NCBI GenBank assembly: GCA_963632935.1 | Contig: CAVGWA010000004.1 | Location: 2,576-66,575, forward strand | Length of the DNA: 64,000 bases | From: Oscillospiraceae bacterium | GTDB lineage: Bacteria > Bacillota_I > Bacilli_A > RF39 > UBA660 | Reading direction: 5' to 3' | Part shown: positions 1,750-47,396 of the stretch, in pieces | Position numbering within the stretch: the stretch's first letter is position 1 | How the letters are laid out: each line of letters opens with the position of its first letter | Translations under genes and position numbers: made by a program | Notes under the pieces: model-generated | The model's input: only the letters and a program-made list of their open reading frames with translations | Database searches by the model: none | Told to the model about the DNA's origin: nothing

Positions 1750-1751
1750 TC

Positions 1752-22080: not shown

Positions 22081-22953
22081 ATATTTTATACAGTCATTTA
22101 TAATATAATCAATAATTTTTTCATTAGTTTCCTTAATATAATGAATACCATCATCAGATTTAAATTTTAATTCATCATAAGCATTACAATAATAAATATT
22201 TTCTTCTTTAGAATTATTTATTTTTTTTATAATTTCTTTATTAAATTCTTCTATTTTTTTATTTGTTCTTGTATTATACTTTTGTGTCTCATTTAATCTT
22301 TTTTCAAATATTGGATTAATAGATAAAACATATAAATTTATTTTTGAATTATATTGAGCCAATTTTTCATATTCATCAAAATACTCATCAGCTCTTTTTT
22401 TAATATCTATATCATCATTTAAATCATTCACACCCATATTTACAACAATATTATATTTATCATAATTACCATTCTTTAAAATTTTATATGCCCTAGGTAA
22501 AGCTTCATCATGAAACCAAGTATATTTCATTGCACTTTTAGCAATAAAATCAAAATTTCCCGGCTTAATTAAATTTTCATCGTCTTCCATCAATTCCATT
22601 CTAGAATCGCCAATAATTAATACCCTATTGTTATTTAAATAATTTGTTTCATTTTCAATACTTTTATAAAATATATTAGAAGCACTTCCATAGTATTTAC
22701 ACGCACAATTTTTAACAGATGAACTATAAATAAGCCATATAAACATAAAAACTAAAAAACCAACAAATACTAAGCTAAAAAACATAATTATAATTTTAAT
22801 ATAAATTTTATTTTTTATTTTTTCTAATATATTATCATTTTTAATTAAAAAACATAATCCTATTAAAAAAACAAGTACAAAAAAACAGCAAAGATCAAAA
22901 AAACTCGTATGTACAAATGTAAAAATTATGTCTTCATCACAAATTTTAAGCAC
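22078..22953 (-). CDS. Membrane-anchored SGNH/GDSL hydrolase
   Basis: N-terminal TMs, then VLIIGDSRM (block I Ser), GVNDL (block III), DDGIHY (block V Asp/His). GTG start after GGTGA. Confidence 0.7.
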   Translation of the reverse strand: MLKICDEDIIFTFVHTSFFDLCCFFVLVFLIGLCFLIKNDNILEKIKNKIYIKIIIMFFSLVFVGFLVFMFIWLIYSSSVKNCACKYYGSASNIFYKSIENETNYLNNNRVLIIGDSRMELMEDDENLIKPGNFDFIAKSAMKYTWFHDEALPRAYKILKNGNYDKYNIVVNMGVNDLNDDIDIKKRADEYFDEYEKLAQYNSKINLYVLSINPIFEKRLNETQKYNTRTNKKIEEFNKEIIKKINNSKEENIYYCNAYDELKFKSDDGIHYIKETNEKIIDYIINDCIKY

Positions 22954-24081: not shown

Positions 24082-24102
24082 GAGAATTATCTCTTATTTT
24101 TT
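24080..24102. terminator. Bidirectional hairpin between spoIVB and the acyltransferase gene
   Basis: AAGAGA ATTA TCTCTT followed by ATTTTTT. Confidence 0.5.
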
Positions 24103-25156
24103 AAAATATCTTTTTAAATATAGGTATTTTTCGTATTAAATAAAATAATATATCTAATATAATAAAAACTATAATAACATTTAAAAATGCCCCTATAAAC
24201 GAATTAAATACATATATCTTGTTTATAATAGAAAAATCATGAATAATTCCTATCAAAGGAACATGAAATAAATAAATACCAAATACAGAACTACTAGATA
24301 TGGTTATAAATTTTTCAAATTTCCATTTCTTTTTATTATCTAAATAATATTTAAATATTACAAATAAACACATTGATGAAATAGCAACAGGTAGATATGA
24401 AAATTCTAATAGAAAATCATTATAATCTCCTGTTGTCTTATAACAGCAAAATAAGTAACAAGCATTAATAATATTAGTAATTATAAAAGTAATTATACAT
24501 ATATAATTTTCTTTTCTATTAATCTTTTTTTTATTTATATAATGTCCAAAAACAAAATAACCTACAGCAATAGAAAACATGGTTGTTACAAGTCTATTAT
24601 TAAATCCTAGGCTATAACTTATATTTCCTTTAAATAATATATAAATTATTGAACCACTAAATGATGGAATAAATTCCATAAAACTTGCCATAATTACAAA
24701 AAGTAAAATAAACATTTTATAATCTTTTTCTTTAAAACCCTTAATCATTTCTTGTAAAAATGGTAAAACAATATATAAACCTATAAGCATATAAATATAC
24801 CATCCCCAATATGGTATATAATTATAATTCCCACCAGACCATATATAGAAAATAATTTTTAACGGATTTTTCTTGTAAAATATACAAAAGAAAATACAAG
24901 AAATTATATAAGCAATAAAAACTCTTACTATTCTTTTTGTAAATACTTCCTTATAACTAGTTTTTCTATTTAAAAGAAGTGCTCCTGATGCCATTATAAA
25001 AAGTGGCACAGCAACTTTACAAATAGAAAATAAAGTTAATTTCATAAATATACCTAAATTACTAGAAGGCATTACATACATATGTGTATGATTGTAAATT
25101 ACAAATAATATAGCAAGAATTTTTAAAGCATCTAAATAAAGTATTCTATTTTTCAT
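24101..25156 (-). CDS. Acyltransferase family 3 (AT3) membrane O-acyltransferase
   Basis: 351 aa, ~10 TM. N-terminal RILYLDALKILAILFVIYNHT is typical of Acyl_transf_3. Confidence 0.8.
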   Translation of the reverse strand: MKNRILYLDALKILAILFVIYNHTHMYVMPSSNLGIFMKLTLFSICKVAVPLFIMASGALLLNRKTSYKEVFTKRIVRVFIAYIISCIFFCIFYKKNPLKIIFYIWSGGNYNYIPYWGWYIYMLIGLYIVLPFLQEMIKGFKEKDYKMFILLFVIMASFMEFIPSFSGSIIYILFKGNISYSLGFNNRLVTTMFSIAVGYFVFGHYINKKKINRKENYICIITFIITNIINACYLFCCYKTTGDYNDFLLEFSYLPVAISSMCLFVIFKYYLDNKKKWKFEKFITISSSSVFGIYLFHVPLIGIIHDFSIINKIYVFNSFIGAFLNVIIVFIILDILFYLIRKIPIFKKIF

Positions 25157-26093
25157 TTAAATCTTTTTCAGTTTCTGCAGTTATATAAATTGGTCTTGCT
25201 TTAACTTCTAGGTAAGCTTTTGATAAATACTGTCCAATAATACCAGTACATAAAAGTTGTACGCCACCTATGAAAAACATTATACATGCCATACTTGGCC
25301 ATCCACTTGTAGGATCACCATATGTTAATGTTCTAACAATAATTAAAATTATTAACACAAAAGCTATAAAGCAAAATAATATACCCATAACAGAAGCTAT
25401 TGAAAGTGGTACGGTAGAAAAAGCCACAATACTTTCTAAGGAATACAAAAACAATTTAAAAAATGACCATTTTGTAGTTCCTGCAGCTCTTTCAATATTT
25501 TCATATTCAAGCCATTTTGTCTTATATCCAACCCATGAAAATATACCTTTAGAAAAACGATTATATTCTTTTAAAGATAAAACAGAATCTACCATTTGTC
25601 TTGTCATTAATCTAAAATCGCGTGCTCCATCTACTATTTCAGTTTTTGAAATTTTATTGATTAATTTATAATACATTCTCGCAAAAAAGCTTCTAATTGG
25701 AGGTTCTCCTTTTCTTGTTACTCTCCTTGTTGCTACACTATCATATTCTTTTGTTTCTAATATATCATACATTTCTTTTAAAAGTGCTGGTGGGTCTTGT
25801 AAATCTGCATCCATTATAGCTGCATAATCACCAGTAGACGCTTCTAGTCCAGCATACATTGCTGCTTCTTTTCCAAAATTTCTTGAAAATGAAACATATC
25901 TAACTTGTTTATCTTTTTTAGCAAGTTCTCGCATTAATTCTAATGTTTTATCCTTACTTCCATCATTAACAAATATGATTTCAAAATTTGCCTCTTTATT
26001 AAATTCTTTTTCTACTTTTTTTACTTCTTCATAAAATATTTTTATCACTTCTTGTTCATTATAACACGGAACAATTAAAGATATTTTTTTCAT
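25146..26093 (-). CDS. GT2 polyprenyl-phosphate sugar synthase (GtrB/CsbB/DPM1-like)
   Basis: ISLIVPCYNE..., VNDGSKD, DADLQDPP, plus two C-terminal TMs as in GtrB-type enzymes. Confidence 0.85.
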   Translation of the reverse strand: MKKISLIVPCYNEQEVIKIFYEEVKKVEKEFNKEANFEIIFVNDGSKDKTLELMRELAKKDKQVRYVSFSRNFGKEAAMYAGLEASTGDYAAIMDADLQDPPALLKEMYDILETKEYDSVATRRVTRKGEPPIRSFFARMYYKLINKISKTEIVDGARDFRLMTRQMVDSVLSLKEYNRFSKGIFSWVGYKTKWLEYENIERAAGTTKWSFFKLFLYSLESIVAFSTVPLSIASVMGILFCFIAFVLIILIIVRTLTYGDPTSGWPSMACIMFFIGGVQLLCTGIIGQYLSKAYLEVKARPIYITAETEKDLNEK

Positions 26094-26132
26094 TATCTCA
26101 CCTCTACACTAATATTATCATATTTTATATAT

Positions 26133-27566
26133 TTATTCTACACTTTTAATCACAATATCATCTGGAAGATTATAATAATCTTTAAATGCAGCATAAGCCC
26201 AATAATCTTTATCAAGTGGATTATTAGCATCCACATGAAATCTGTCAAATGGTGCCTTTATTATTTTTGTCTCAAGCACCTTACTTTTACCACTTTGTAC
26301 ATTTTTAATTGATATATCTCTTTGCCTTTTTACATATCCAACATAACTATAACCATATACTTCAAATGATATTGAAAATATAAATAATATTATTAATATA
26401 TATTTTAACAAATTAATATTTTCTTTTTGATAAAATAAATTATACATTGTAAAACATGCAATAATTAAATTAAAATGAAAATTCAACCTACCTGCTTCAA
26501 ATTCATTTGTAATTATTAACGAATAAGATAAAGCATAAACACAAATTAAAATTGGAATTAAATTATAATCTTTATTTTTATAAAATATATAGCTTTGATA
26601 TAGAAATAAAACAATTCCTATAATTAAATAAACATAATTATTTTTTGTAAGTGTGCATAAATACAAAATTATTATAATTAAATAAGGTTTAAATAATTTA
26701 TCCTTTTTTATAAAATAACCAATAGATAAAATTAAAAATACTGGAAATAAATTATATAAGTCTAGCGAAAATAAATTTTTAGAAATAATGCCAAGTGCAA
26801 GTAATGGATCAACACCACTACTCATCCTTCCTTGTGTAGAAGGAGCCAGATAAATAAACATAAATCCCATTATAGAAAATATTAATAAAATAATATATTT
26901 TAATGTAATGTTTTTTTCTTTTAAAATTACTTTTTTTAGTATATAATCTGTTATTACTAATATAATTGTAAATATAGCTAAAGCTTCACATATCATAGAT
27001 AAAATAAAACATAAAAATAAAGTTAATTTATATTTAGAGGTTAATCCATATTTTAAATAATAAATAATAAAACAAATCATTATTAAAAATACCAAAACAT
27101 AATTAACAGACCCTGCAACCCAATATACTAAATATTTATAATTATACATCATTAAAAATGAAATAATTGATCCTATAATTAAATAAATATTATTTATTTT
27201 TGTTTTAGATATTGTTTTAATAAAATATGCCATACATATAATACATAAAACAATTACAAGAGGATTTAATATAGACCATAAATTTTTATCATATATTAAT
27301 AAAAATTGAACAATTGAGTGCAGAAAAATTCTAGCATTTATATGAGAATAATCAAATATTTGATTACTTATAACTTCTTTTATATTAGTAATTCTTCTTC
27401 CTGCTCTAAAAAAAAGTGAATAAGGTAGATCATCATTTAAAATCATAGTTTGAAAATGACAATATATTAAAATCAAAAGAAAACAAAATAATAAACAAAA
27501 AGCTTTTTTATTATTTTTTATTATTTCTTTTAATAATATAGTTTTTTCTTTTATTAATTCTTTCAT
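26133..27566 (-). CDS. Polytopic membrane protein, GT-C-like candidate (paralog of 31736-33205)
   Basis: 477 aa, >10 TM. Acidic first-loop motif LNDDLPY. Shares YW..G.VNY and AP.T..R blocks with 31736-33205. Confidence 0.45.
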   Translation of the reverse strand: MKELIKEKTILLKEIIKNNKKAFCLLFCFLLILIYCHFQTMILNDDLPYSLFFRAGRRITNIKEVISNQIFDYSHINARIFLHSIVQFLLIYDKNLWSILNPLVIVLCIICMAYFIKTISKTKINNIYLIIGSIISFLMMYNYKYLVYWVAGSVNYVLVFLIMICFIIYYLKYGLTSKYKLTLFLCFILSMICEALAIFTIILVITDYILKKVILKEKNITLKYIILLIFSIMGFMFIYLAPSTQGRMSSGVDPLLALGIISKNLFSLDLYNLFPVFLILSIGYFIKKDKLFKPYLIIIILYLCTLTKNNYVYLIIGIVLFLYQSYIFYKNKDYNLIPILICVYALSYSLIITNEFEAGRLNFHFNLIIACFTMYNLFYQKENINLLKYILIILFIFSISFEVYGYSYVGYVKRQRDISIKNVQSGKSKVLETKIIKAPFDRFHVDANNPLDKDYWAYAAFKDYYNLPDDIVIKSVE

Positions 27567-27575
27567 ATATATCTC

Positions 27576-28535
27576 CTAGCTATTTTTATATAAATTATAT
27601 ACTATCATTTGTGTAAATGAATTAAAATGTTTCATATAAAATGATGAAAAACCACTTTTTAAATATTTATTTTTTTTATAATTTGGAAAATTATTATTAA
27701 CATTTTCTGTAGCTTTTTCACAAGCTATTTTATATTCTTTTTTATTCAAATGAGCAGCTGCTTTAATAAATGTTTTATATAAATATCTAACATAACAATA
27801 TTCTAATTCACTATAATATTCATCATAAAAATTATTATCTTTATAAAACTTTACAATACCATTAAAATTATCGATATAATCATATATTTTTTTATTATAT
27901 GTTTTACTAATAGTTCCTTTTCTTTGAACATAATTAATAAGTGGCATTTTAACTACCGCTATATTTTTAATATAAGGAAATAGTCTATATAAAAACTCTA
28001 CATCTTCATACCATACATTTTTTTTAAATAAAACTTTGTCAAATAATTCTTTTTTATAAATTTTATTCCATGCAGTTGGGTAGATATCTATCATCTGTTT
28101 TTTAATTTCTTCTTTATCATTTAAATCTTTTAAAACTTTAGAAGATATTTCTTTAGTATAATTACCATAATCTAATCTAACATCACATACAGCAACATCA
28201 AAATCTTTTGATATAGCTTTTTCATATAAATTTTTAAACATATCTAAATCCACATAATCATCACTATCAACAAAACCAATATAATTACTATTACATTTTT
28301 TAATCCCATAATTTCTTGCATCTGATAATCCACCATTTTCTTTATCAAAACAAAATACTTTTTTAGGATAACTTTTAACATATTTTTCAATTATATTCTT
28401 ACTATTATCATTACTTCCATCATTTACAACAATTATTTCAATATCACTTAATGTTTGATAAACTAAACTATCCAAACATCTTTCTAAATATTTTTCTGTA
28501 TTATAAACAGGAACTACTATACTTACTTTTGGCAT
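27576..28535 (-). CDS. GT2 glycosyltransferase
   Basis: VSIVVPVYNTEKYLERCLDSL, VNDGSNDNS, GFVDSDDYV. Confidence 0.85.
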   Translation of the reverse strand: MPKVSIVVPVYNTEKYLERCLDSLVYQTLSDIEIIVVNDGSNDNSKNIIEKYVKSYPKKVFCFDKENGGLSDARNYGIKKCNSNYIGFVDSDDYVDLDMFKNLYEKAISKDFDVAVCDVRLDYGNYTKEISSKVLKDLNDKEEIKKQMIDIYPTAWNKIYKKELFDKVLFKKNVWYEDVEFLYRLFPYIKNIAVVKMPLINYVQRKGTISKTYNKKIYDYIDNFNGIVKFYKDNNFYDEYYSELEYCYVRYLYKTFIKAAAHLNKKEYKIACEKATENVNNNFPNYKKNKYLKSGFSSFYMKHFNSFTQMIVYNLYKNS

Positions 28536-28543
28536 ATCATCAC

Positions 28544-29491
28544 CTACCCTTTAAGTTTGCTTATTGATTTTAATAATTTATAATGTTTATGATATGTTAA
28601 ATAGCATATTAATTTAAATTTAAAACTTTTATTTTTATAATATTTATTGTTTTTAAAATTTTTATATTTTGAATTAATAATATCATTACATTTTTCTAAA
28701 TGTTTTTTACCATCTTTAAATACACTAAATCTTAATCCCGCACTATAAAGTAAGTGCTCAACATTTAAATATTGTAATTCTTCATAATATTCATCATATT
28801 TATTATTTTTAATAAATCTATCTTCTAATGAATTTAAAACTGCAAATATATCTAATAATTTATTATTAAATCTATTTTGATTCATTATAGATCCGTTTCT
28901 TTGATAATAATAATATAAATAATTATCTATTGAAGAAATTTTATTTGTTTTTAAAACTAAAGAAGGAATAAACTCTAAATCTTCATATAAAATTCCCTTT
29001 TTAAATTTAAATTCATCATCAAATAATTCTCTTTTAAAAATTTTATTACAAGCCATAGGAAATGCTATCATAAACTTTTTATAATCATCTATTTTTTGAT
29101 TAATACATGGCACAATTTTACCATCATCCCAAATTTTATTAAAATTAAATGATACAATATCATACCCTTTAACTACTTCATTATATAAAATTTCTAAGGT
29201 GTTTTTTTCTATATAATCATCACTATCAATAAATAAAACATATTCCCCTTTAGCTTTACTTAATCCATAATTTCTTGCATCTGATAGTCCTCCATTTTTT
29301 TTTATAAAACCATAAACTAAATTAGGATATTTTTTTTCATATTTTTCAATTATTTTTTGGCTATTATCAGGTGAACCATCATTAATACATAATATTTCAT
29401 AATCTTCAAATGTTTGATTAACTAAGCTATCTAAACATTTTTCTAAATAATCTTCTACATTATATATTGGAACAATAATACTAATTTTCAT
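28544..29491 (-). CDS. GT2 glycosyltransferase
   Basis: MKISIIVPIYNVEDYLEKCLDSL, INDGSPDNS, LFIDSDDYI. RBS GGAGA upstream of ATG 29491 (the ORF opens at 29521). Confidence 0.85.
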   Translation of the reverse strand: MKISIIVPIYNVEDYLEKCLDSLVNQTFEDYEILCINDGSPDNSQKIIEKYEKKYPNLVYGFIKKNGGLSDARNYGLSKAKGEYVLFIDSDDYIEKNTLEILYNEVVKGYDIVSFNFNKIWDDGKIVPCINQKIDDYKKFMIAFPMACNKIFKRELFDDEFKFKKGILYEDLEFIPSLVLKTNKISSIDNYLYYYYQRNGSIMNQNRFNNKLLDIFAVLNSLEDRFIKNNKYDEYYEELQYLNVEHLLYSAGLRFSVFKDGKKHLEKCNDIINSKYKNFKNNKYYKNKSFKFKLICYLTYHKHYKLLKSISKLKG

Positions 29492-30650
29492 CATTTTTCT
29501 CCATTTCTTTAAATAAATCAATCCACTTATTTATAATATTTTCAATTAAAAAATTATTTGAATATTCTTTACAATTATTAGAAAACTTCTTTAATGTATC
29601 TTCATCATTCATTAAATACATAAGTTTTTCTTTATATAACTTTTTATCATTTTGTTTAATAACATAACCAGTTTTATCTTTTAAAACTTCTTCATTAATA
29701 GATTCTCCATGATTAAATGTCACCGTTGGTATGCCGCATGTTGTAGACTCTATTATACTCATAGAAAATCCTTCAAATATTGAAGTATTTAAATTAATAG
29801 AACTATTCAACAAAACCTCTTTAGGATTATCAGTAACACCTTTATAATTAATTTGATTATTATTATCTATTATTTTTTTACTTTCTAAATCAAATTCACC
29901 TAATCCATAAATATCAAACGACCAATTTTTAAAACTTTCATCTTTAAAAATATCATTAACCATTTCAATCATTAAATTAATTCTTTTATTGTAATTTTCA
30001 ATACGAGTAATTACGACAATTTTTTTATTTTGAATAACATTAGCTTTCTTTTCACAATCAAATCTTACTGGGTTATATATACAAAAATTTTTATTAAAAC
30101 CACTTTTTAAAGCTTTATTTAAAGCTGCCTTACTTAACCAAATATAACCATATATTTTACCATTATATTTTTTTAAAACATTAAAATTATCTTTTGCTTC
30201 ATTTAAAAAATCAAATGACGCATGATGTTCATATAATGTTTTTGACAAATATTCATTTGGAATTCCATATAAAGTTTGATAATGAGAAGCTATTATATAA
30301 TCAGGTTTATTTAAAATAATATACTCTTTTAATTTTTTAAAATCATTTTTTAACTTTAAATGTGATTTAAAATATTTAAATATATTCTTAAAAAAAGAAA
30401 TTAAATTTAATTTTTTAAGTGGCATTATAACATCTTTTTTTCTCATTAAATTCCATGAATCATTATTAATAATATCTAATTTAATATTCTTATCACACTT
30501 TAATTTTTTACCTAAACTATTTCTAATAGATAAAATACTAACATCATAACCTTTTTTCACTAAAGCCTCAGCTACCGATTTATTAACATACCAAACGCCA
30601 CCTAAAGCATTTTCATTTTGTAAAAATAATACCTTTTTCATATTAACCAC
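29481..30650 (-). CDS. GT4/GT1-type (GT-B fold) glycosyltransferase
   Basis: 389 aa. C-terminal half ...NTSIFEGFSMSIIESTTCGIPTV... is the E-x7-E-type GT4 motif. Confidence 0.8.
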   Translation of the reverse strand: MVNMKKVLFLQNENALGGVWYVNKSVAEALVKKGYDVSILSIRNSLGKKLKCDKNIKLDIINNDSWNLMRKKDVIMPLKKLNLISFFKNIFKYFKSHLKLKNDFKKLKEYIILNKPDYIIASHYQTLYGIPNEYLSKTLYEHHASFDFLNEAKDNFNVLKKYNGKIYGYIWLSKAALNKALKSGFNKNFCIYNPVRFDCEKKANVIQNKKIVVITRIENYNKRINLMIEMVNDIFKDESFKNWSFDIYGLGEFDLESKKIIDNNNQINYKGVTDNPKEVLLNSSINLNTSIFEGFSMSIIESTTCGIPTVTFNHGESINEEVLKDKTGYVIKQNDKKLYKEKLMYLMNDEDTLKKFSNNCKEYSNNFLIENIINKWIDLFKEMEKNDEN

Positions 30651-31130
30651 CTAATTATTTTCTATATAATTTTCTATATGTTTTATAAAATTTTTAGTAT
30701 TACTAACATACTTTTTAGGCTTAAATTTTTTTACCTTTTTTAAAAGCTCATCTAACCTATCAAAATCATCTAAAGCAAGTAAATAACCTTTTTTAGAAAA
30801 ATCGCTAATTATTTGTAATTGATGATCATTAGTGTGCTCACCAAATTCTTTTAACCTAGCTGCAGCAATTACTTTTTTTCCATTTTTAATTCCATTTAAT
30901 ATACTCGCAACTCCTCCATGAGTAATTAAAATATCACAATCCTTAACTAATTTATCAAACTTTTCATATTCAATTAATTCATATATTTTCATATCTTTAC
31001 TTTCAAATTTAGTATAACCAGCTTGAACAATAACCTCATCTTTTATATTCCCATTATCTATTTGTTTTTGAACTGCTTCAAGTAATCTAGTAAAAGGTTT
31101 GTCTTGAGTTCCTAACGTAACTAAAATCAT
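30651..31130 (-). CDS. Alg13-like / Cps14G-PssE-type glycosyltransferase subunit (Glyco_tran_28_C)
   Basis: MILVTLGTQDKPFTRLL..., ...ITHGGVASIL... Confidence 0.8.
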   Translation of the reverse strand: MILVTLGTQDKPFTRLLEAVQKQIDNGNIKDEVIVQAGYTKFESKDMKIYELIEYEKFDKLVKDCDILITHGGVASILNGIKNGKKVIAAARLKEFGEHTNDHQLQIISDFSKKGYLLALDDFDRLDELLKKVKKFKPKKYVSNTKNFIKHIENYIENN

Positions 31131-31141
31131 AAAATCTCTCC

Positions 31142-31615
31142 TTAAAAAATACCACCAAAATATTTAGCTTTTGGATAAAGTTTAAGCATACTTTCCCACT
31201 GCACAATAAATAAATCAGCAAATTTATAAACTAATTTACCTGTAATTGTTTTTGTCGTCATATTAGCAAATGTTTCAATAAATATAATTTTACATCCAAA
31301 TATTTTACCTATGCAGCACATAGGACCAGCAACATGAGCTCCAGTTGAAACAATGTACTTAGGTCTAAATTTAATAAAAATAAATAAACACAAAAAACAA
31401 TTTATTAATAATTTAAACGGATAAACTAATTTATGATCTTTAGAACCAAATACCAAAAAATCAATTTTATTTCCATATTGTTTTTTTAATTTTACATTAT
31501 TATCTGTCTTTTCTGTAACAATGTAATAATCATATTTTTTAAATAGTGGTTTTAACTGCATAAGTTCAACAAAATGTCCACCTGTACTTGATATAAACAT
31601 AACTTTTTTCTTCAT
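31142..31615 (-). CDS. Alg14-like / Cps14F-PssD-type membrane-associated GT subunit
   Basis: KVMFISSTGGHFVELMQL...; size and pairing with the Alg13-like gene. Confidence 0.8.
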   Translation of the reverse strand: MKKKVMFISSTGGHFVELMQLKPLFKKYDYYIVTEKTDNNVKLKKQYGNKIDFLVFGSKDHKLVYPFKLLINCFLCLFIFIKFRPKYIVSTGAHVAGPMCCIGKIFGCKIIFIETFANMTTKTITGKLVYKFADLFIVQWESMLKLYPKAKYFGGIF

Positions 31616-31619
31616 TTAC

Positions 31620-31708
31620 CTCACCTAACTACTCTAAGTATATCATGTATACTTTAAGATGTAAATTAAAGAAAAGAAAAGAAACAAAACTATTATAGTT
31701 TTATTTCT
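31620..31708 (-). promoter_or_regulatory. Internal terminator-promoter-leader cassette, copy A
   Basis: Minus strand: hairpin (31681-31707) + T-rich run, -35 TTTACA (31660-31665), 17 nt, extended -10 TGaTATACT (31637-31645), short leader with AGGTGAGG RBS. Blocks repeated at 34859-34923. Confidence 0.55.
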
Positions 31709-31735
31709 ATACTTATGTAATTAATCATATATATT

Positions 31736-33205: not shown

Positions 33206-33214
33206 TATTATATA

Positions 33215-34852: not shown

Positions 34853-34858
34853 AATTCT

Positions 34859-34923
34859 CTCACCTAACTACACCAAGTATATCATATAAATAAAAGAAAC
34901 AAAACCATTATAGTTTTATTTCT
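34859..34923 (-). promoter_or_regulatory. Internal terminator-promoter-leader cassette, copy B
   Basis: 34859-34885 is 25/27 identical to 31620-31646. 34892-34923 is 31/32 identical to 31677-31708. Extended -10 TGaTATACT at 34876-34884 (minus). Confidence 0.55.
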
Positions 34924-36625: not shown

Positions 36626-36635
36626 ACAAAGCTCC

Positions 36636-38099
36636 TTAATATATTAATAAATACATATTGTTTTTATCTACAATAATTTGTTTTTTCTCATTAAATTCTT
36701 TATAATCTTTACCTTTGAAATATTTATTATAATCATCTTTTTTCATTGGAATAAATTTGTATTCATCCCCGATATAAGCAGGAAATGCACATTGCACTGA
36801 CCAATTGACTGCCGTTAATCTAATATTTACACCATTCGCATTTCCAAAATTATAATAATAATCACTATTTGTATCTTTAGCAAAATAAACATTTTTAATT
36901 TTTTCTTTATGCTTTGTATTATAGTAATCTATGTAAGATTTAACTTTATTTATATATGCCATATCTTCTTTATACCTTTTTAAATTTATCATAGAATTTT
37001 GTCTAAACAAATAAAATGTAAATAGTCCAAATAGACAAATAATTATAAATATAAAATATGTATAATATTTATTTTCATTATAATACATAAGTGCATATAT
37101 TACAAGTACACTTGGTACTATAGCACACGTCATTGTCATTCTAGCTGCTGAATAATTTGAAGATGAATTCATAAATAAATTAGGAATATATGGAGATAAT
37201 GTGCAAGATAAAATAAGAATTGTAAGTAAAATTAATTTTTTATATTCTTTTTCTTTTATAACTTGATAAAGAATAAATCCTAATAAAATAATACATATTA
37301 AATAATAATATTTATTATTAATAAATCCATAAAATGTTTTAAAAGTTTGTGGTATTAAATCTTTAAAAATTGTAACTAAATTTGAAATAATATTTATACT
37401 ACCTATTTTACTTATTGTCTGTTTACTAATTAAACTTACTAATTTAATAATAATTAAAGTAAATACAAAAGCAAGACCATATATAATAAATGAAATTAAT
37501 ATTTTTTTAATTATTTCTTTTGTATCATTTTCTTTATCTAAAATAATCATTAAAATTAAAATTGGAAATAAAAAGCAAGCTATACCTTGATAACAAGATA
37601 CAGAAATTATCATATATAAAAGAGATAATAAATAATTTTTTGTGCCACCTAAATTTATTTTATCAGCACACAATATTATAAAATAAAATCCTAAATAAAT
37701 TATGAAGCTTCCATCAATAGTAATTAATTCAATTGAAAGAAAATTATAAAAGATTAAAAATATTGATGTTAACAGTGTTAATTTTTTAATTTTTGTATTT
37801 AATTTTAATTTATCATTAAAAATGTAATATAACCTGCACACCACAAGTGCTAAAGCTAAGGATGTTAAAAATGATGATACAAAGCTTAATGAATAAAATG
37901 GCAATTTTATTAATGAAAATATATAAGATATCAAAGCTGAAAATATTCTACCATTTTGTAAAAACCAAAATGCAGTTTGACTATAACCATTATAAATTGT
38001 GCAGTAACTTTCTAAAGAATGACTACTAACAAATGTAGGATATATGAATATGACTCCAACACTAAATACACATAAGAAAAATAATATTTTATTTTTCAT
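36636..38099 (-). CDS. Polytopic membrane protein (GtrII/GtrC-like candidate)
   Basis: 487 aa, ~11 TM + C-terminal soluble domain. No motif recognised with confidence. Confidence 0.4.
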   Translation of the reverse strand: MKNKILFFLCVFSVGVIFIYPTFVSSHSLESYCTIYNGYSQTAFWFLQNGRIFSALISYIFSLIKLPFYSLSFVSSFLTSLALALVVCRLYYIFNDKLKLNTKIKKLTLLTSIFLIFYNFLSIELITIDGSFIIYLGFYFIILCADKINLGGTKNYLLSLLYMIISVSCYQGIACFLFPILILMIILDKENDTKEIIKKILISFIIYGLAFVFTLIIIKLVSLISKQTISKIGSINIISNLVTIFKDLIPQTFKTFYGFINNKYYYLICIILLGFILYQVIKEKEYKKLILLTILILSCTLSPYIPNLFMNSSSNYSAARMTMTCAIVPSVLVIYALMYYNENKYYTYFIFIIICLFGLFTFYLFRQNSMINLKRYKEDMAYINKVKSYIDYYNTKHKEKIKNVYFAKDTNSDYYYNFGNANGVNIRLTAVNWSVQCAFPAYIGDEYKFIPMKKDDYNKYFKGKDYKEFNEKKQIIVDKNNMYLLIY

Positions 38100-39597
38100 T
38101 CAAATCACTCCTTTTATAAATAGTTATATTAAGAAAAGCTAATGTAAATACTAAATACATCATAGGACTTACCCATCCAAATACATGACCAGATAAATAC
38201 GCAATAGAAAGGCCTAAAACAGTACTCATAAACCCTAAAATAACACTATATCTTAAGTTATTTTTAATATTTTTTAAAACATTAATAGCTAAATAAATTA
38301 ATAATATAAAATAAGGTCCCATTGAAATAGTCATTCCAACAATTCCAAATAAATAATATTGATATACATAATCACGTTCTATGTCCATAAAATTAAGGGT
38401 ATATCCTAGTCCAAAGTAAGTATCTAATTTATTGTTATTTCTTTCTTTAACTCTTGCAATAATATCAGCTTTCATTATTCTACTATTATTATTTAAAGAT
38501 TTATCTCTACTAGCCATTTGAAGCCAAAATTCAGTATCACTTGAAAATGGATACATTTTTAAATAAGCTTCATTTATCAAATATTCATCTTTATATTTTT
38601 CAAATATTTTATTAATACTTTTTTTATCTTTTTTATCAACTTTACTTAACAAAGAATATGCGTCAGAATTTTTAACAGAAAAATCCGGTGTTCCTTCACT
38701 AATTCTACTAATCATAAATGGTGATATTGTCATAAATGCAGATAAAATTAAAGTAAATATTGGCATGTATTTTTCAAAATAAGGTTTTCTTTTTTCTTTT
38801 TTTAATAAAACTAAAGCAATATAAATTACTAAAGATGTAATACTTATAATCACACTTCCATAAGCAGCTGTCCTTGTTCCAAGTAAAATCATTGCTAAAA
38901 ATTGAGATATAAATAATATTAAATTTTTTCTAGTTGGATTTTTATAAAATATATATATATTTATTGGCATAAGCATAAACATAGTAGCTGATAGTTCATT
39001 TGCTGAATCAAACCAACCACGAGATGTTAATTGTCTAAAATCACCTGAAAATAAGAAATAATCAAATATATTATGAGATATAAAATTCTTAGTAGAACTA
39101 TATGAAATAAATGATAATTTTAAAATATTTAAAACTATAATAAAACCTGATATAATTCCAATTACTATTTTAGCTATTTTCAAATAATATTCTTTATTAA
39201 ATAAATCTTTGTTATTACATAAAACATATAAAAGCATAAGTGGTAAAACATAAACTCTTAAAATATAAAAGGTTTCAGTAATTAAATTAAAATTAGCTTT
39301 AGGAAATATTGTTTTATCAAATGTTATGATATGTTTATAATGCAAAATTATATATATAAATACTAAAACTAAATATAATATTAAAAATAAGATATTTTTC
39401 TTTTTACTTTTCCATAATTTAATTATTGTAATTAATAAGGCAAAACCTATTAAAAAAATATTAACAAGTTCTATAAAACTAATTCCAAGTACCTCAAAAT
39501 GTCTAAATGAGGTTGTTCTTAACATATCTAAAAAAGGAAGTTGAATTAATAATATTGATATGAATAATTTTATAATTTTATCTTTTGTAATTTGCAC
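38089..39597 (-). CDS. O-antigen polymerase/ligase-like (Wzy_C-type) membrane protein
   Basis: 502 aa polytopic. ...ILLGTRTAAYGSVII... resembles the Wzy_C/O-antigen-ligase loop region. Confidence 0.5.
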   Translation of the reverse strand: MQITKDKIIKLFISILLIQLPFLDMLRTTSFRHFEVLGISFIELVNIFLIGFALLITIIKLWKSKKKNILFLILYLVLVFIYIILHYKHIITFDKTIFPKANFNLITETFYILRVYVLPLMLLYVLCNNKDLFNKEYYLKIAKIVIGIISGFIIVLNILKLSFISYSSTKNFISHNIFDYFLFSGDFRQLTSRGWFDSANELSATMFMLMPINIYIFYKNPTRKNLILFISQFLAMILLGTRTAAYGSVIISITSLVIYIALVLLKKEKRKPYFEKYMPIFTLILSAFMTISPFMISRISEGTPDFSVKNSDAYSLLSKVDKKDKKSINKIFEKYKDEYLINEAYLKMYPFSSDTEFWLQMASRDKSLNNNSRIMKADIIARVKERNNNKLDTYFGLGYTLNFMDIERDYVYQYYLFGIVGMTISMGPYFILLIYLAINVLKNIKNNLRYSVILGFMSTVLGLSIAYLSGHVFGWVSPMMYLVFTLAFLNITIYKRSDLNEK

Positions 39598-39601
39598 ACT
39601 C

Positions 39602-40537
39602 TCACCTCTTTATTCGCTGAATGAAACTAATTGTTTTATATTTTTTAAAATAAAATAGTTTCATTAAAATTTTTTCTTTTAAACTTAATTTTTTTACATA
39701 TTTATTATTATACCATAAAGGAAATTTTTCTTTAATAAAATCACTGATTTTATCAATTTGATCATATTTTTTAAATCTATAAAAATTTAAAGACCCTAAA
39801 TATAAAAAATGAAAGCAAATTAAATATTCTAATTCTTGATTATAACCACATCCTATTAAATTATCATATAAATAATTTGTAGCTTTAAAAATATCTTCAT
39901 ATTTTTTTTTATATACTTCACTTCTCATAGTTGATACTTCACTTTGAACATAATGAACAAATGCATCATTACAATAATATAATTTTGGATTATATTTTAT
40001 TAATGTAGGAATTGAAGCATAATCCTCATACATTATTCCTTCTGGAAAAGAAAAATTATTTTCAATTAAAAAACTTTTTTTATAAAATTTATTCCAAGGA
40101 CAAGTATCAAATTTCCAATAATCTGCATTAATAATATTACCAGCTATTCCATCAAATAATTTTACATAATTATCTTGATCTTCTTTTGTATAATAATAAT
40201 CTGAAAGAATAATATCATTATCAGATGTACATTCATTTAATTTTTCAAACATATTTAAATCTACATAATCATCACTATCTATAAATGATATATATTCGCC
40301 TTTTGCTTTTGATAAGCCTAAGTTACGAGCAGATGCTTGACCACCATTTTCTTTTTTTAAATAAATAATTCTTTTATCTTTTAAATATTGTTTTATTATA
40401 TCTTCACTATTATCTGTAGAGCCATCATTGACTAAAATAATTTCAATATTTTTAAATGTTTGATTAACTAATCTATCTAAACATTTTTTTAAATATTTTT
40501 CTGAATTATATATTGGAACAATTACACTAAATTTCAT
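39602..40537 (-). CDS. GT2 glycosyltransferase
   Basis: MKFSVIVPIYNSEKYLKKCLDRL, VNDGSTDNS, SFIDSDDYV. Confidence 0.85.
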   Translation of the reverse strand: MKFSVIVPIYNSEKYLKKCLDRLVNQTFKNIEIILVNDGSTDNSEDIIKQYLKDKRIIYLKKENGGQASARNLGLSKAKGEYISFIDSDDYVDLNMFEKLNECTSDNDIILSDYYYTKEDQDNYVKLFDGIAGNIINADYWKFDTCPWNKFYKKSFLIENNFSFPEGIMYEDYASIPTLIKYNPKLYYCNDAFVHYVQSEVSTMRSEVYKKKYEDIFKATNYLYDNLIGCGYNQELEYLICFHFLYLGSLNFYRFKKYDQIDKISDFIKEKFPLWYNNKYVKKLSLKEKILMKLFYFKKYKTISFIQRIKR

Positions 40538-41349
40538 AATTCCCTCCTATATTCATCAAGCATATCTAATAGTTTTTTATCTACATTTATATCAACTTTA
40601 CGGCAAAAGAAATTATCACTTTCAACTATTTTATTAAAATCTTTTTTCATTAAAATATCAGGGTTTCCTTTATTAAAACCTTTTTTATGACTTGACCAAT
40701 CTATATAATATTTATTATCATCTACTATAGTATCTTTAAATTTTGAATTATATAAAACTGTTTGAATAAAAACTTCGTCTATGCATGAAGTATATTTAAT
40801 TTTTTTATTAAATTCATCATTATATTTTTTAACTATATATTTAACTGCATCTTGATTTAACATCCACCAAACGCTTCCCCAACATGGAACCATATTTTCA
40901 AATATATTTTTTCTTTTTATTAATTTAACAGAAATTTTATCTAAATATTTATTTTTAAATCTATATTTTAAATATCTATTTTTTGTGCTTTCATCTTCAA
41001 TTTTACCAATTGTTATATAATTTTTTTCTTTATTTGAATTTAAAAACTGAACAACATCAGAAATTGGTTTTACTAAATAATCTTGCTCACTCATAAGAAT
41101 AAAATGAGTATAGTCTTTATTATTTAATATATAATTCAAACTATATATAATTGCATCAACCATAGATGAATCGCCCCAACCAATATCAAATCTTTTATCA
41201 ATCAACTTAATATCCTTAAAATTATTTTGATTAAAGTCTGCTTTTTTATCAGCATGCATAAATATATCAACATTATCATTTTTCAAAGTATCAATTAATC
41301 TTCTTACTTGATTAAAATTTTTATGAGCTAAGATAAGAACCGCTATCAT
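40534..41349 (-). CDS. GT14 (Core-2/I-branching enzyme family) glycosyltransferase
   Basis: MIAVLILAHKNFNQVRRLIDTLKNDNVDIFMHADKK... is the typical 'Branch' domain N-terminus. 4-nt overlaps on both sides. Confidence 0.7.
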   Translation of the reverse strand: MIAVLILAHKNFNQVRRLIDTLKNDNVDIFMHADKKADFNQNNFKDIKLIDKRFDIGWGDSSMVDAIIYSLNYILNNKDYTHFILMSEQDYLVKPISDVVQFLNSNKEKNYITIGKIEDESTKNRYLKYRFKNKYLDKISVKLIKRKNIFENMVPCWGSVWWMLNQDAVKYIVKKYNDEFNKKIKYTSCIDEVFIQTVLYNSKFKDTIVDDNKYYIDWSSHKKGFNKGNPDILMKKDFNKIVESDNFFCRKVDINVDKKLLDMLDEYRREL

Positions 41350-42233
41350 TTAGACTCCCCCTTAATATAGTTATATAATTTATCTATTATTTTTTTATCA
41401 GTTTTAGTTGAAAATTTTCTAGCAAATAAATATTTACTATTTATAAGTTCATCAAAATCTTCACTTTTAAAAATATAAGGCTCGCCTCTATTCCAATCAA
41501 TATATCTCACAATTGACATATAATCATCATCTTTTTTTAAATATAAATTATTATAAAACTTACTATTATAAACTAATGTTTGAACAAACAATTCATCAGA
41601 GCAATAACTATATTTAAAATGTCTTTTTATAAATTTTTCATTTGAAATGATATAACTAGCTAAATCATTTGTTATACTGAACCAATTGGCTCCTTTTCTT
41701 ATATTTAAATCTTTACATCTATTTATTTTTAATTTTTTTTGAAATTTGATTAAATGAAAATGAAGAGAGTTATAAATTCTTGCTATTATTCCATTATTTC
41801 TAAATTTTGAGGTAAATAGATGATAATATCTTATTCTATCTATCGTTTCATCTTTAACTTTATCATAATAATCAAAATGAACAAATTCGCATCCTTTATT
41901 TTCATTAAAAAAAGCATGAATTTCATCTTGATTTTTTAATGGCATGTCTATCCCACTTATTAAATGATAATATGCATATTTATTACTATAAGCCATTTTT
42001 AAAAGTGATAATTCACATTTAATTTGCATGTATGTTCCCCATCTTACATCTAATCTTGGAGTAAAATATAAATTGCTTTTTTTGACAATTTTTTTAAAAT
42101 AATCAAAATCAAAATCTTTCCATTTTTTATCAATATGAATATATATATCATTTCTTTCGTCATCGATTAATTTTAATTGTTTTTCTAATATGTAAGGTTC
42201 ATTATGAGCAATGACTAAATATGCATGTTTCAT
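41346..42233 (-). CDS. GT14 (Core-2/I-branching enzyme family) glycosyltransferase, second copy
   Basis: MKHAYLVIAHNEPYILEKQLKLIDDERNDIYIHIDKK..., ...CSDELFVQTLVYNS... parallels ...CIDEVFIQTVLYNS... in the neighbour. Confidence 0.7.
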   Translation of the reverse strand: MKHAYLVIAHNEPYILEKQLKLIDDERNDIYIHIDKKWKDFDFDYFKKIVKKSNLYFTPRLDVRWGTYMQIKCELSLLKMAYSNKYAYYHLISGIDMPLKNQDEIHAFFNENKGCEFVHFDYYDKVKDETIDRIRYYHLFTSKFRNNGIIARIYNSLHFHLIKFQKKLKINRCKDLNIRKGANWFSITNDLASYIISNEKFIKRHFKYSYCSDELFVQTLVYNSKFYNNLYLKKDDDYMSIVRYIDWNRGEPYIFKSEDFDELINSKYLFARKFSTKTDKKIIDKLYNYIKGESK

Positions 42234-42237
42234 GAAA

Positions 42238-43779
42238 CTACGCTCTCTTTCTTATTTTATTAAATAGAAATGTAAATCTATTTTTCGCACTTTGAAATTC
42301 ATCAGTATTTTTATATATTAAAATTATTAATAATGTTGGAATAATTAATGATAAACTAAAATTAATAATAACTTGCATTAATGAATTTACATGTATAAAA
42401 TTAGTAATTAAATAAATAATTAATCCAGATATTACTAAAACTACGGTTTGTTTAAAAAACGATTTAAAATAAATACTTATTTCTTTATCCAAAACGTGTT
42501 TAAAAATAACAACTGGTTTTATAATTAAAGGAAGTAAATAACTAATTAGTGTTCCAAGTAAAATACCTGGCAAACCTAAAAATTTAACTAAAATTATACT
42601 TAACGATAAATTTAATGTAGCTTCTAATATTGGAACATATTTATCATATTTATATACTCCAGCTGCTGATTGTACAATTATAGGAACTTGATTTATTCCA
42701 ACTAAATAATAATTAATCATGATTAATAAAACAACAGTAAAATCTAAAACATATTTACTACCAAATACTAATTTTATAAAAGGATTTAGTGTAAATAATA
42801 AACATATTGTAGAAACTCCGTATAAACAGTATGTTATAAAATCCATTTCTTTAAACACATCAAATCTTTTTTCCTTATCTCCCTCAGCAATTAAATTTCC
42901 AAATGAAGCTGTAACATTACTTACAAATGTATATATAAAATTACTTATAGTACTATGTATTAAAACATAATTAGAATAAATACCGACTGTAACAATTCCT
43001 ATATATTTTGAAATTACAATATTATCAGTGGCTGTTAATACATAATTACCTATTTTATGAAGCATTAAGGCTTTTATATTAGTTTTTATTTCATTTAAAT
43101 CTTCTTTTTCTAATTTTTTAGCTTTATTTATTTCTTTTAAATATGGATAGCATTTATTTATATAATTATTTACTAAAATATTTTCAAGAAAAACACAAGC
43201 AGTTTGAACTAATAAATATAATATATAATTTTTAAATAATAATAATATAATAATTTGACCTACAGTCATTATAAAATTAGAAAATATTAAATAAGGAGTT
43301 ATTTTATAATTTTTTTGATCTGCAGTAATCAACGTTCTTTTATATGAAAATAAATAACCTATTACCATGTTTGCTAGAAAAATTAAATAAATTATATTTA
43401 AATTTTCAATGCCTGATGTATCTTTAATAAACCATGGTAAAAATGGCAATAATATTAAACCAGATACTAATACAACTAAGGCAATGACTCTATAGGCAAT
43501 TTTATAAAATTTCATTAAGCTTTTGCATTCTTCTATATCATTACTTGCTAGCGGTTTATATAAACTATAATTTATGGCTGTACCTATCCCTAATTCAGCT
43601 AAAGCAAGAATTCCAAGTACATTTGATAAAAGCCCATTTACGCCTAAATAAACATCATTTAATACCTTAACAAATATAATTCTAGAAACAAATCTTAATA
43701 AATTTAAAATTAAACTATTAGCAAAGTTTCCTAAAGCATTTTTTATTGAATTTAACGTTCTCAAATAATCACCAACCAA
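42238..43779 (-). CDS. wzx: MOP-superfamily polysaccharide flippase (Wzx-like)
   Basis: ~14 TM. N-terminus ...NSIKNALGNFANSLILNLLRFVSRIIFVKVL is typical of Wzx/PST. The real start is possibly TTG 43764, after GGTGA. Confidence 0.8.
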   Translation of the reverse strand: MVGDYLRTLNSIKNALGNFANSLILNLLRFVSRIIFVKVLNDVYLGVNGLLSNVLGILALAELGIGTAINYSLYKPLASNDIEECKSLMKFYKIAYRVIALVVLVSGLILLPFLPWFIKDTSGIENLNIIYLIFLANMVIGYLFSYKRTLITADQKNYKITPYLIFSNFIMTVGQIIILLLFKNYILYLLVQTACVFLENILVNNYINKCYPYLKEINKAKKLEKEDLNEIKTNIKALMLHKIGNYVLTATDNIVISKYIGIVTVGIYSNYVLIHSTISNFIYTFVSNVTASFGNLIAEGDKEKRFDVFKEMDFITYCLYGVSTICLLFTLNPFIKLVFGSKYVLDFTVVLLIMINYYLVGINQVPIIVQSAAGVYKYDKYVPILEATLNLSLSIILVKFLGLPGILLGTLISYLLPLIIKPVVIFKHVLDKEISIYFKSFFKQTVVLVISGLIIYLITNFIHVNSLMQVIINFSLSLIIPTLLIILIYKNTDEFQSAKNRFTFLFNKIRKRA

Positions 43780-43924
43780 TTCTACATATAAGTATATCAG
43801 ATTTTTAATTAAATTAATAGTAAAATAAAATTCTAAATAAGATACATAAATTTTTAAATTTTAAAAATTGTTCTAATTTTTACCTTTATAATTTCAAATT
43901 GATAACTAAAAAAATTGATAATTT

Positions 43925-44383
43925 TTATATCAATTTTTTATCTTTTAAATATTGTAAAAAACCTTTACAACCTTCGGTAATTTCATTATAAGTCATTTCA
44001 AAATTACGTGAATACCAAGGATCTATAATATCTTTTGGAATATTTGTAAAATCTAATAATTTATATATTTTATCTTTTCTACCAGTTATTCTTTTTATAT
44101 TTTCTACATTTGAATTTTCCATGCCTATTATAAAATCATAATTATTATAATCTTCAGGCATCAATCTTACTGCTTTTCTTTTGTCATATTTGATATTTTT
44201 TTCATCCAATATTTCTTTAGCACATCTATACATATCATTTCCTATTTCTTCATAGCTTGTAGCTGATGAATTTATAATAAATTTATTTTCAAGGTTCTGT
44301 TTTTTAACCATATCTTTTAATATAAATTCCGCCATTGGAGATCTACAAATATTTCCTAGACATACAAACATTACTTTAATCAT
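43925..44383 (-). CDS. Low-molecular-weight protein tyrosine (or arsenate-reductase-fold) phosphatase
   Basis: P-loop MFVCLGNICRSPMAE. DPW/DPY-type Asp loop IIDPWY. RBS GGAGGT 7 nt before ATG 44383. Confidence 0.9.
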   Translation of the reverse strand: MIKVMFVCLGNICRSPMAEFILKDMVKKQNLENKFIINSSATSYEEIGNDMYRCAKEILDEKNIKYDKRKAVRLMPEDYNNYDFIIGMENSNVENIKRITGRKDKIYKLLDFTNIPKDIIDPWYSRNFEMTYNEITEGCKGFLQYLKDKKLI

Positions 44384-44546
44384 TGTTTTTACCTCCATAA
44401 TATTAATATAAACTAAGTATAATTTTTTATTAAAAAATAAATTATTCTTTAGTCATAATTGTTATCCATTAAATTAATAATAAATAAACAATACCAATAA
44501 TAACAACCAAAAATAAAATTATATCTAAAAAAAAGGTAATTAAAGT

Positions 44547-47391: not shown

Positions 47392-47396
47392 CTACT

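Follow-up and report, generated by a model that had tools for sequence, protein, structure and literature searches.

We analysed a 64-kb stretch of DNA from an uncultured low-GC gut Bacillota bacterium (64,000 nucleotides, the whole of which we call the window) and found that a genuine operon of 20 kb, devoted to a polysaccharide of the cell surface, occupies positions 24101-44398. In it, one GtrB-type polyprenyl-phosphate-sugar synthase faces five candidate users of its product, membrane proteins of the glycosyltransferase (GT) C type (GT-C). We consider it somewhat probable that the locus makes a Wzx/Wzy heteropolysaccharide that is started by an unlinked priming enzyme and decorated outside the membrane by GtrB together with modular GT-Cs. 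The presence of five GT-Cs and a true GtrB, with no priming transferase, points to outer-face elaboration from a lipid-monophosphate sugar, and the GT-C genes are optional and movable, which fits genes for decorators better than genes for core steps.

An earlier note on this DNA, made from the letters alone, had proposed an 18-gene glycan locus here, and both its coordinates and every family that it named were confirmed by the open reading frame (ORF) listing and by Pfam. The listing gives 18 consecutive, tightly packed ORFs at 24101-44398, all on the minus strand, as are all features of the locus described below; the core glycan locus within them is 24101-43779, with wzx (42238-43779) as its first gene and an AT3 acyltransferase gene (24101-25156) as its last. 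In transcription order, the products are a low-molecular-weight protein tyrosine phosphatase (LMW-PTP), Wzx, two GT14, a GT2, a PF13425 protein, GtrII, a YfhO-like protein, PMT_2, DUF6056, PssD, PssE, GT4, two GT2, another DUF6056, GtrB and AT3. The stop/start overlaps reported before were exact at 25146/25156, 38089/38099, 40534/40537 and 41346/41349, and the fifth, 29481/29491, depends on the start chosen for the GT2 gene at 28544-29521. Gene-free gaps measure at most 145 bp and thus leave no room for a hidden gene, so that a priming gene concealed in small or unannotated ORFs was ruled out. The window is AT-rich, the locus having a G+C content of 19-25% and its flanks one of 22-31%, and the minus-strand run extends upstream to 49130 with unrelated genes. 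Domain assignments come from a Pfam scan of all non-nested window ORFs with 100 aa or more; 8 ORFs lying within or across longer ones were taken as spurious and left out. In this AT-rich DNA, promoter and terminator scans returned sites no more numerous than in shuffled sequence and were silent on transcription units; the sole Rfam match in the window is a tRNA at 6771-6843.

The six large polytopic proteins, grouped by the earlier note as GT-C/Wzy-like, were separated by Pfam into five members of GT-C families and one member of the Wzy/O-antigen-ligase superfamily (PF13425). We take PMT_2, YfhO, Glucos_trans_II and DUF6056 to be GT-C families. The five are a GtrII (Glucos_trans_II) protein at 36636-38099 (PF14264, 3.1e-16; 59.9 bits, cut-off 30), a YfhO-like protein at 34916-36625 (Pfam YfhO, 5e-8), a PMT_2 (ArnT/PMT-like) protein at 33215-34852 (2.9e-14), and two GT-C-like proteins of the DUF6056/GT_STM0557_N family sharing 23% identity, DUF6056b at 31736-33205 (PF19528, 4.7e-17) and DUF6056a at 26133-27566 (PF19528, 3.2e-34). 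PF19528 bears the name GT_STM0557_N in the precomputed labels of a newer Pfam release, STM0557 being a Salmonella GtrC-type O-antigen glucosyltransferase. The AlphaFold2 model of the YfhO-like protein (pLDDT 90.2) matched GT-C enzymes in 23 of 23 Foldseek hits to solved structures (E <= 0.001), including STT3, PglB, AftA, AftD, DPY19 and AglB. The DUF6056a profile aligned with the YfhO profile in hhalign (E 6.3e-5, probability 64%, 295 columns), and in this alignment the NDDLPY of DUF6056a falls on the GDDxxFH of the YfhO-like protein. Sequence search of the solved-structure database gave no usable match for DUF6056a, PMT_2 or the YfhO profile.

Four of the five carry an acidic motif, HMGDDFLFH in the YfhO-like protein, GVHIDEAS in PMT_2, HPNFDDYAY in DUF6056b and LNDDLPY in DUF6056a. 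These had been assigned to the first outside loop, and hydropathy and positive-inside analysis agreed, placing all four directly after the first transmembrane (TM) segment, TM1, on the predicted outer face; a K/R-rich cytoplasmic N-terminus precedes the TM1 that leads to the motif, or, in PMT_2, a K/R-rich cytoplasmic loop instead. GT-C catalytic residues are expected at such an extracytoplasmic position (PMC8035078). The motif residues are invariant in homologues, D47/H51 across an alignment of 39 YfhO-like sequences and D45/D46 across 40 DUF6056 sequences. A prophage origin of the GT-C cassettes was considered and dropped, a phage collection having given two weak partial matches to DUF6056b (24-27% identity).

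The donor side of the system is a single gene at 25146-26093, which encodes a GtrB-type polyprenyl-phosphate hexose (or N-acetylhexosamine, HexNAc) synthase (PDB 5EKP, 8e-73; ArnC, 1e-36), and the earlier claim of a true enzyme of this type holds. The match to 5EKP, Synechocystis sll0501, which we take to be GtrB, spans residues 3-307, the full length. The protein has C-terminal TM segments and a DADLQ motif, consistent with the DxDxQ hallmark of polyisoprenyl-phosphate glycosyltransferases (PMC10821137). Its best NCBIfam match is PgfS, at 318.8 bits under an equivalog cut-off of 500. In relatives, GtrB keeps 83-87% amino acid identity, against 86-88% for MnmA, with the GT-Cs falling to 39-50% and PssD/E and Wzx intermediate; the housekeeping-like conservation of GtrB fits GT-Cs that act as decorators and give each strain its own glycan. 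The fully covered close relatives, L066 and L068, have exactly one GtrB each, and a GtrB orthologue lies at most 3 kb from the YfhO-like gene, mostly directly adjacent, in 21 of 58 loci. It stands outside the polysaccharide locus, beside a gene for an LtaS/OpgB-like protein, in L008 and L018, and the retrieved stretches of locus from L013, L020 and L007 show no GtrB gene.

The remaining genes of the core locus would mostly serve a Wzx/Wzy-type pathway. The MOP-family Wzx flippase at 42238-43779 (Polysacc_synt 1.3e-8; NCBIfam WZX_like 1.8e-9; about 12 TM segments) is 79-96% identical in relatives. Downstream of it are two cytoplasmic GT14 (Branch) enzymes, at 41346-42233 (4.5e-23) and 40534-41349 (9.4e-25), the second of which is missing from L066 and L010. 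The PF13425 protein at 38089-39597 (O-antigen_lig, 1.9e-43, residues 10-493) has about 11 TM segments and a 119-aa loop, and the locus encodes no other protein of this kind; its family includes polymerases and ligases alike, and it had no sequence match among solved structures. We infer that it would be the repeat-unit polymerase rather than a ligase. The split enzyme is made up of an Alg14-like membrane anchor, the PssD/Cps14F half, at 31142-31615 (NCBIfam PssD, 175.3 bits, cut-off 110; Pfam Alg14, 9e-16), and an Alg13-like catalytic half, PssE/Cps14G, at 30651-31130 (NCBIfam PssE, 134.7 bits, cut-off 120; Glyco_tran_28_C, 3e-12); both exceed their equivalog cut-offs, and the genes are 11 bp apart. 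A GT4 lies at 29481-30650 (Glycos_transf_1, 2.4e-21). The GT2 enzymes, previously counted as four plus GtrB, are four in all including the GtrB-like one, the three others being soluble, with motif DSDD and no membrane segments: GT2c at 39602-40537 (Glycos_transf_2, 1.4e-36; no C-terminal TM segment in the translation), GT2b at 28544-29521 (1.5e-38) and GT2a at 27576-28535 (7e-37), the last of which is 62-76% identical in most clade relatives. The AT3 membrane acyltransferase at 24101-25156 (Acyl_transf_3, 3.3e-32) probably serves glycan O-acetylation.

No priming phosphoglycosyl transferase (Bac_transf PF02397 or Glycos_transf_4 PF00953) was found in the scanned window ORFs, in the complete loci L066 and L068 or among the relatives' unassigned ORFs, which upholds for the locus, and extends beyond it, the absence noted before. 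The absence of nucleotide-sugar enzymes, Wzz and BY-kinase was likewise confirmed in the scanned window ORFs, where there is no LCP ligase either. Within 24101-44398, Pfam detected neither a PgfE-like epimerase nor adhesin genes, and the short gaps contain no WpsB/GacJ-like small partner ORF for GtrB; the window holds no rhamnan-type backbone genes, and no phage genes adjoin the locus. The earlier note had put more weight on the missing primer than it can bear. In Rhizobium, the primer PssA is encoded outside the Pss-I cluster, a direct precedent, and the NCBIfam family to which the split enzyme belongs takes its name from the pssD/pssE of that system (PMC9961541). The donors of Wzy/ligase-type enzymes are diphosphate-linked (PMC10920833), which implies a diphosphate-forming primer somewhere in the genome.

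We also compared relatives of the locus. Searching species-representative genomes with the YfhO alignment gave 64 loci. The exact YfhO-like protein was found on one contig of NCBI, 68.6 kb long, and on one of Logan, which measures 10.9 kb and shows 100% identity to the window. The close relatives are metagenome-assembled genomes (MAGs) of uncultured gut 'Bacilli' and a Candidatus Coprosoma MAG, and include two complete chromosomes of 1.34 and 1.54 Mb. The clade locus lies at the same site and ends convergently at spoIVB. In L068 the order is LMW-PTP, Wzx, two GT14, GT2, PF13425, GtrII, YfhO, DUF6056, PssD, PssE, GT4, two GT2, two DUF6056, GtrB and AT3, and in L066 it is GH25, followed by PMT_2, Wzx, GT14, GT2, PF13425, GtrII, two YfhO-like genes, PssD, PssE, GT4, two GT2, DUF6056, GtrB and AT3, ending at spoIVB. 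The GT-C genes are interleaved with cytoplasmic GT genes, in two or three fixed operon slots, and vary together with the polysaccharide genes. Their number changes between relatives, from two to five in complete ones, with five in L004, two in L009 and L010, and one or two in L013 and L020; a priming transferase gene is absent from all of these loci, L066 and L068 included. PMT_2 is the only one missing from L003/L068, is missing from L002 too, and has a different place in L066 (upstream of wzx) and L004. DUF6056b is also missing from L002, and three DUF6056 genes are present in L068. L066 has two YfhO paralogues in tandem (8281-10020 and 10001-11716), one of them its extra gene of 579 aa; the upstream copy reads SGSD for GDD and so retains the invariant second Asp but not the first. 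The L003 sequence (CAVDHX010000059.1) has 91.5% DNA identity to the window locus and comes from a bin titled Sphaerochaetaceae, probably a binning error given its low-GC Bacillota gene content.

A case of turnover is L002, whose DNA matches that of the window at 99.4% identity apart from three differences. Window positions 31709-34887, a 3.2-kb indel with PMT_2 and DUF6056b, are absent; a 113-bp deletion in GtrII (37490-37602) splits the ORF; and the YfhO region has only 94% DNA identity. The YfhO-like allele diverges between strains to 87% and 78% amino acid identity, against 95-100% for its neighbours. Two copies of an intergenic module, about 65-90 bp long, flank the missing segment in the window; the module consists of a small hairpin with the palindrome AAAACTATAATAGTTTT and a ribosome-binding site, AGTTAGGTGAG. 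Copy 1, upstream of the PssD-like gene (31620-31708), is a direct repeat of copy 2, downstream of the YfhO-like gene (34859-34923), with 90-94% identity; the window contains these two copies only, with 0 expected by chance. Recombination between them would yield the exact L002 arrangement, and the duplicated module looks like a recombination substrate for cassette loss or gain. GT-C genes are optional: single ones are gained, lost or disrupted, and the rest of the operon backbone stays the same.

Relatives also show other kinds of change. L013, a complete relative of 1.34 Mb, encodes the PF13425 domain and a C-terminal GT4 domain in a single fusion protein of 797 aa (1214-3607), and it carries a UDP-glucose dehydrogenase gene. 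Genes of the Stealth family (hexose-1-phosphoryl transferase-like) lie inside the locus in L004 (5378-6376) and L020 (4266-5270). From these genes, some versions of the glycan are probably phosphodiester-linked or uronic-acid-containing. Further away, YfhO-like homologues of near full length (27-31% identity) occur in Candidatus Saccharibacteria/Nanosyncoccus MAGs from ruminants and humans (L028, L032, L035, L038, L042, L044 and L057), and in four of these seven (L028, L032, L038 and L044) the gene stands beside opposite-strand GT2 genes.

We propose the following scheme for the decorated Wzx/Wzy heteropolysaccharide, in which step order, donor sugar, acceptors, the role of the polymerase and the selective pressure are all inferred. 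At the cytoplasmic face, up to eight transferases would build a lipid-linked repeat unit, the PssD/PssE split enzyme acting early and followed by three GT2, the GT4 and the two GT14; the initiating phosphoglycosyl transferase and the sugar-nucleotide supply would be encoded elsewhere in the genome. Wzx would then flip the unit, and the single PF13425 protein would polymerise it. At the outer face, GtrB would charge undecaprenyl phosphate (C55-P) with one hexose or HexNAc, and the flipped product would be the one donor for the five GT-Cs (GtrII, YfhO-like, PMT_2 and two DUF6056), each adding a side-branch of its own, distinct in position or in acceptor, with O-acyl groups added by AT3. Gain, loss, inactivation and exchange of GT-C cassettes would diversify the surface glycan, plausibly under pressure from phages or host immunity.

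Several observations count against this account. That an unlinked priming transferase is encoded elsewhere in the genome is an assumption, and the scanned window ORFs include no GtrA-type flippase, a task that the single Wzx could take on. The ratio of donor synthase to GT-C, 1:5, goes beyond the mostly 1:1 of characterised systems (PMC8035078, Table 1). The AlphaFold2 model of DUF6056a (pLDDT 91.3) gave non-significant Foldseek results (best ArnT, E 0.41; STT3, probability 0.82, TM-score 0.40), so that the putative GT-C status of this protein draws on the profile-profile alignment and on Pfam. The placement of GtrB/YfhO beside the LtaS/OpgB-like gene in L008 and L018 hints at a different acceptor, at least for that pair.

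Two known systems resemble the present locus. The gtrABC serotype-conversion modules (Salmonella GtrC of the STM0557 type, Shigella GtrII) have the same families as found here in two PF19528 proteins and one PF14264 protein, with one GtrB, and are optional, exchangeable modules that alter a surface glycan once it is exported; they differ in that here there is no GtrA, the genes are not obviously prophage-borne, and several GtrC-type genes share one GtrB inside a biosynthesis operon. To our knowledge, the Pss-I EPS region of Rhizobium leguminosarum and the cps14 locus of S. pneumoniae lack both GT-C decorators and GtrB but include components for chain length or export. They share with the present locus the PssD/PssE (Cps14F/G) split and Wzx/Wzy-type assembly, and PssA again lies outside the cluster (PMC9961541).

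The GT-Cs might instead glycosylate other acceptors, a glycerophosphate or lipoteichoic acid (LTA)-like polymer or Ser/Thr-rich parts of membrane and surface proteins, their position in the operon meaning co-regulation only; we regard this as unlikely. YfhO- and PMT_2-type GT-Cs do glycosylate LTA and wall teichoic acid (WTA) in Bacillus, Listeria and Staphylococcus (PMC8035078), and streptococcal pairs of the GtrB/YfhO type add O-linked glycans to disordered protein regions rich in Ser and Thr (PMC12041528). The window itself has a collagen-like protein, a sortase with a TED adhesin and, as a conserved neighbour, the LtaS/OpgB-like gene (18251-19786), whose orthologue adjoins GtrB in L008 and L018, and YfhO as well in L008. 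The best NCBIfam match of the GtrB-like protein, PgfS, belongs to a protein-glycosylation operon of S. mutans, but its score is below the equivalog cut-off, and both the PgfE-like epimerase and adhesin genes are missing from the locus. The fixed slots of the GT-Cs among the cytoplasmic GTs, with which they co-vary, are most simply explained by a shared product. The three- and multi-component systems of Firmicutes (CsbB-GtcA-YfhO, GtlA/GtlB, GacI-J-K-L, GtsABC) have the same GT-A with a YfhO/PMT_2-type GT-C and acidic motif; they are, however, mostly of one GT-A to one GT-C (1:2 in Listeria 4b) and usually stand alone, whereas the present genes are embedded in a Wzx/Wzy operon and the window has no GtrA/GtcA. 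A spore-surface (exosporium or crust) glycan seems highly improbable. The clade locus conserves its adjacency to spoIVB-GDSL-spoIIM, and a collagen-like gene lies at 13860-14636; yet the locus is convergent with spoIVB and not co-transcribed with it, its neighbours include the housekeeping genes mnmA, queH, sigA and dnaG, and the promoter scan was uninformative. We also know of no characterised spore-glycan locus with a Wzx/Wzy plus GT-C architecture, which weighs further against it.

A dual-chain scheme like that of the lactococcal polysaccharide pellicle (PSP) would dispense with the diphosphate-forming primer, and we rate it as distinctly unlikely. GtrB would initiate the repeat unit on undecaprenyl monophosphate, Wzx would flip it before polymerisation, and one GT-C would move the chain onto a separate backbone made elsewhere, the other GT-Cs adding branches. 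This accounts for the absence of a priming gene from the window and from every complete relative, and for GtrB being present once and the most conserved gene of the locus, in parallel with the core of WpsA/B, Wzx and the GT-C WpsJ. Here, however, the GT2 is a membrane-anchored GtrB, not a soluble WpsA/GacI with a small partner, there are no backbone genes of the rhamnan type in the window, and GtrB is placed outside the locus, or was not seen in it, in the five relatives named above. We take Cps14F/G to act on glucose-diphosphate-undecaprenol (Glc-PP-Und). More generally, the PssD/PssE and Wzy/ligase families are known with diphosphate-linked substrates (PMC9961541; PMC10920833). In lactococci, initiation on C55-P has been shown in vitro and a GT-C attaches the chain (PMC10821137). 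The cwps operon of Lactococcus lactis/cremoris (PSP; WpsA/B, WpsC-F, the Wzx WpsG, WpsH/I and WpsJ, with CsdAB, CsdCD and CsdEF/CflA) is likewise strain-variable and combines cytoplasmic GTs, Wzx, a GT2 monophosphate-sugar synthase and GT-Cs, with no diphosphate-forming primer in its variable region and glycan diversity tied to phage specificity (PMC10821137, PMC8035078). Unlike it, the present locus has five GT-Cs in one operon with one synthase, and a PF13425 Wzy-like protein with PssD/E; in lactococci, the Csd systems are 1:1 pairs encoded away from the cwps cluster.

With equally little credence, we considered that the five GT-Cs jointly build an extended, branched outer-face glycan from one donor, or that the GtrB product primes the whole polymer. 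The joint-build variant would work, by analogy, in the manner of mycobacterial arabinan; the GtrB-primed variant would be a fully monophosphate-lipid pathway with a GT-C ligase. When mycobacteria and corynebacteria assemble arabinan/mannan (Emb, AftA-D, decaprenyl-P-arabinose), many GT-Cs do use one polyprenyl-monophosphate donor and make branches outside the membrane, and AftA and AftD are among the structural matches of the YfhO-like protein. That assembly, though, belongs to another phylum and polymer, its genes are not in a Wzx/Wzy operon, and nothing here indicates polymer-building over the addition of single sugars. If either variant were true, this gut Bacillota lineage, whose genome is reduced, would have as its dominant surface glycan a product that GT-C cassettes can program.

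The earlier note had called the logic of the locus unusual for a Firmicute, a view that we do not share, as decoration by GT-A, flippase and GT-C is documented in Firmicutes (PMC8035078, PMC10821137, PMC12041528). In Bacillus, Listeria, Staphylococcus, Lactococcus and Streptococcus, multi-component transmembrane glycosylation of this kind (a GT-A C55-P-sugar synthase, a flippase and a GT-C) modifies LTA, WTA and complex polysaccharides of the wall (PMC8035078). Both the overall logic and all of the components have precedents in Firmicutes. What is uncommon is the 1:5 ratio of GtrB to GT-C, the place of the GT-Cs in fixed slots of a Wzx/Wzy operon, and GT-C turnover between near-identical strains; in open-access text we found no published description of such a locus (DUF6056, or combined YfhO/GT-C/Wzx/Wzy clusters). 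If the decorated Wzx/Wzy reading is true, a lineage with genomes of 1.3-1.5 Mb (two complete relatives) spends about 20 kb on one surface-glycan operon and reprograms the fine structure of the glycan by swapping outer-face GT-C genes. The locus would then be a compact natural example of one lipid-phosphate sugar donor feeding several acceptor-specific GT-Cs, and GT-C cassette content would be a strain marker that could be compared, in metagenomes, with phage host range or immune recognition. What is understood of glycan assembly in Gram-positive bacteria is left unchanged, and known multi-component transmembrane glycosylation is extended to a new lineage and a higher ratio of transferase to donor.

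At the upstream edge, the LMW-PTP gene at 43925-44398 (LMWPc, 9e-32) is separated from wzx by the 145-bp gap. It is present in L003/L068, where DUF7788 and an AAA ATPase lie upstream of it, and in L066 it is replaced by PMT_2 and a GH25 lysin gene upstream of wzx. The Pfam scan of the window gave no kinase partner. Its membership of the locus, in which the earlier note had included it, is doubtful, and we did not retain it as a member given its absence from L066. A polysaccharide deacetylase with an Ig domain (44547-45938) was also rejected, having no match at any relative's locus. The upstream flank continues with queH, pilus genes, sigA and dnaG. The pilus genes, a prepilin peptidase and PilC/T2SS-F (46621-49130), are on the same strand 2-5 kb upstream of the locus; we found no link between them and the glycan locus, and the upstream neighbours differ in relatives.

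The downstream flank is made up of spoIVB, a membrane-anchored GDSL/SGNH protein, spoIIM, mnmA and the LtaS/OpgB-like sulfatase-domain protein. The GDSL/SGNH protein (22078-22953) lies between spoIVB and spoIIM in most clade relatives and evolves fast (35-48% identity); it could be the extracytoplasmic partner of the AT3 protein, which lacks an SGNH domain. The sulfatase-domain membrane protein (18251-19786; NCBIfam phosphoglycerol transferase I, 7.7e-56) has its gene beside mnmA throughout the clade relatives. Ahead of this gene, and overlapping it, comes a membrane ORF of 113 aa (19761-20102) with no Pfam match at E <= 0.01; in relatives, too, small unassigned ORFs, of 118-150 aa, stand ahead of the sulfatase gene. 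Where GtrB and YfhO (L008) or GtrB (L018) are neighbours of the sulfatase gene, the arrangement hints at glycosylation of a glycerophosphate polymer.

Further from the locus, at a distance of 9.5 kb, the collagen-repeat protein (13860-14636) has GPT/GxK triplets and a globular C-terminal domain of the BclA/exosporium type, and it is a conceivable glycoprotein acceptor. Two transposase genes, at 9742-11550 and 12377-13645 (DDE_Tnp_1; ISL3 family, 3.5e-44), sit between sporulation/cell-wall genes and the collagen-like gene. The thioester-domain (TED) surface protein and its adjacent sortase are encoded at 1844-3344, and an Abi_2 abortive-infection protein, at 4241-5173, comes 0.9 kb after them, beyond an amidase gene.

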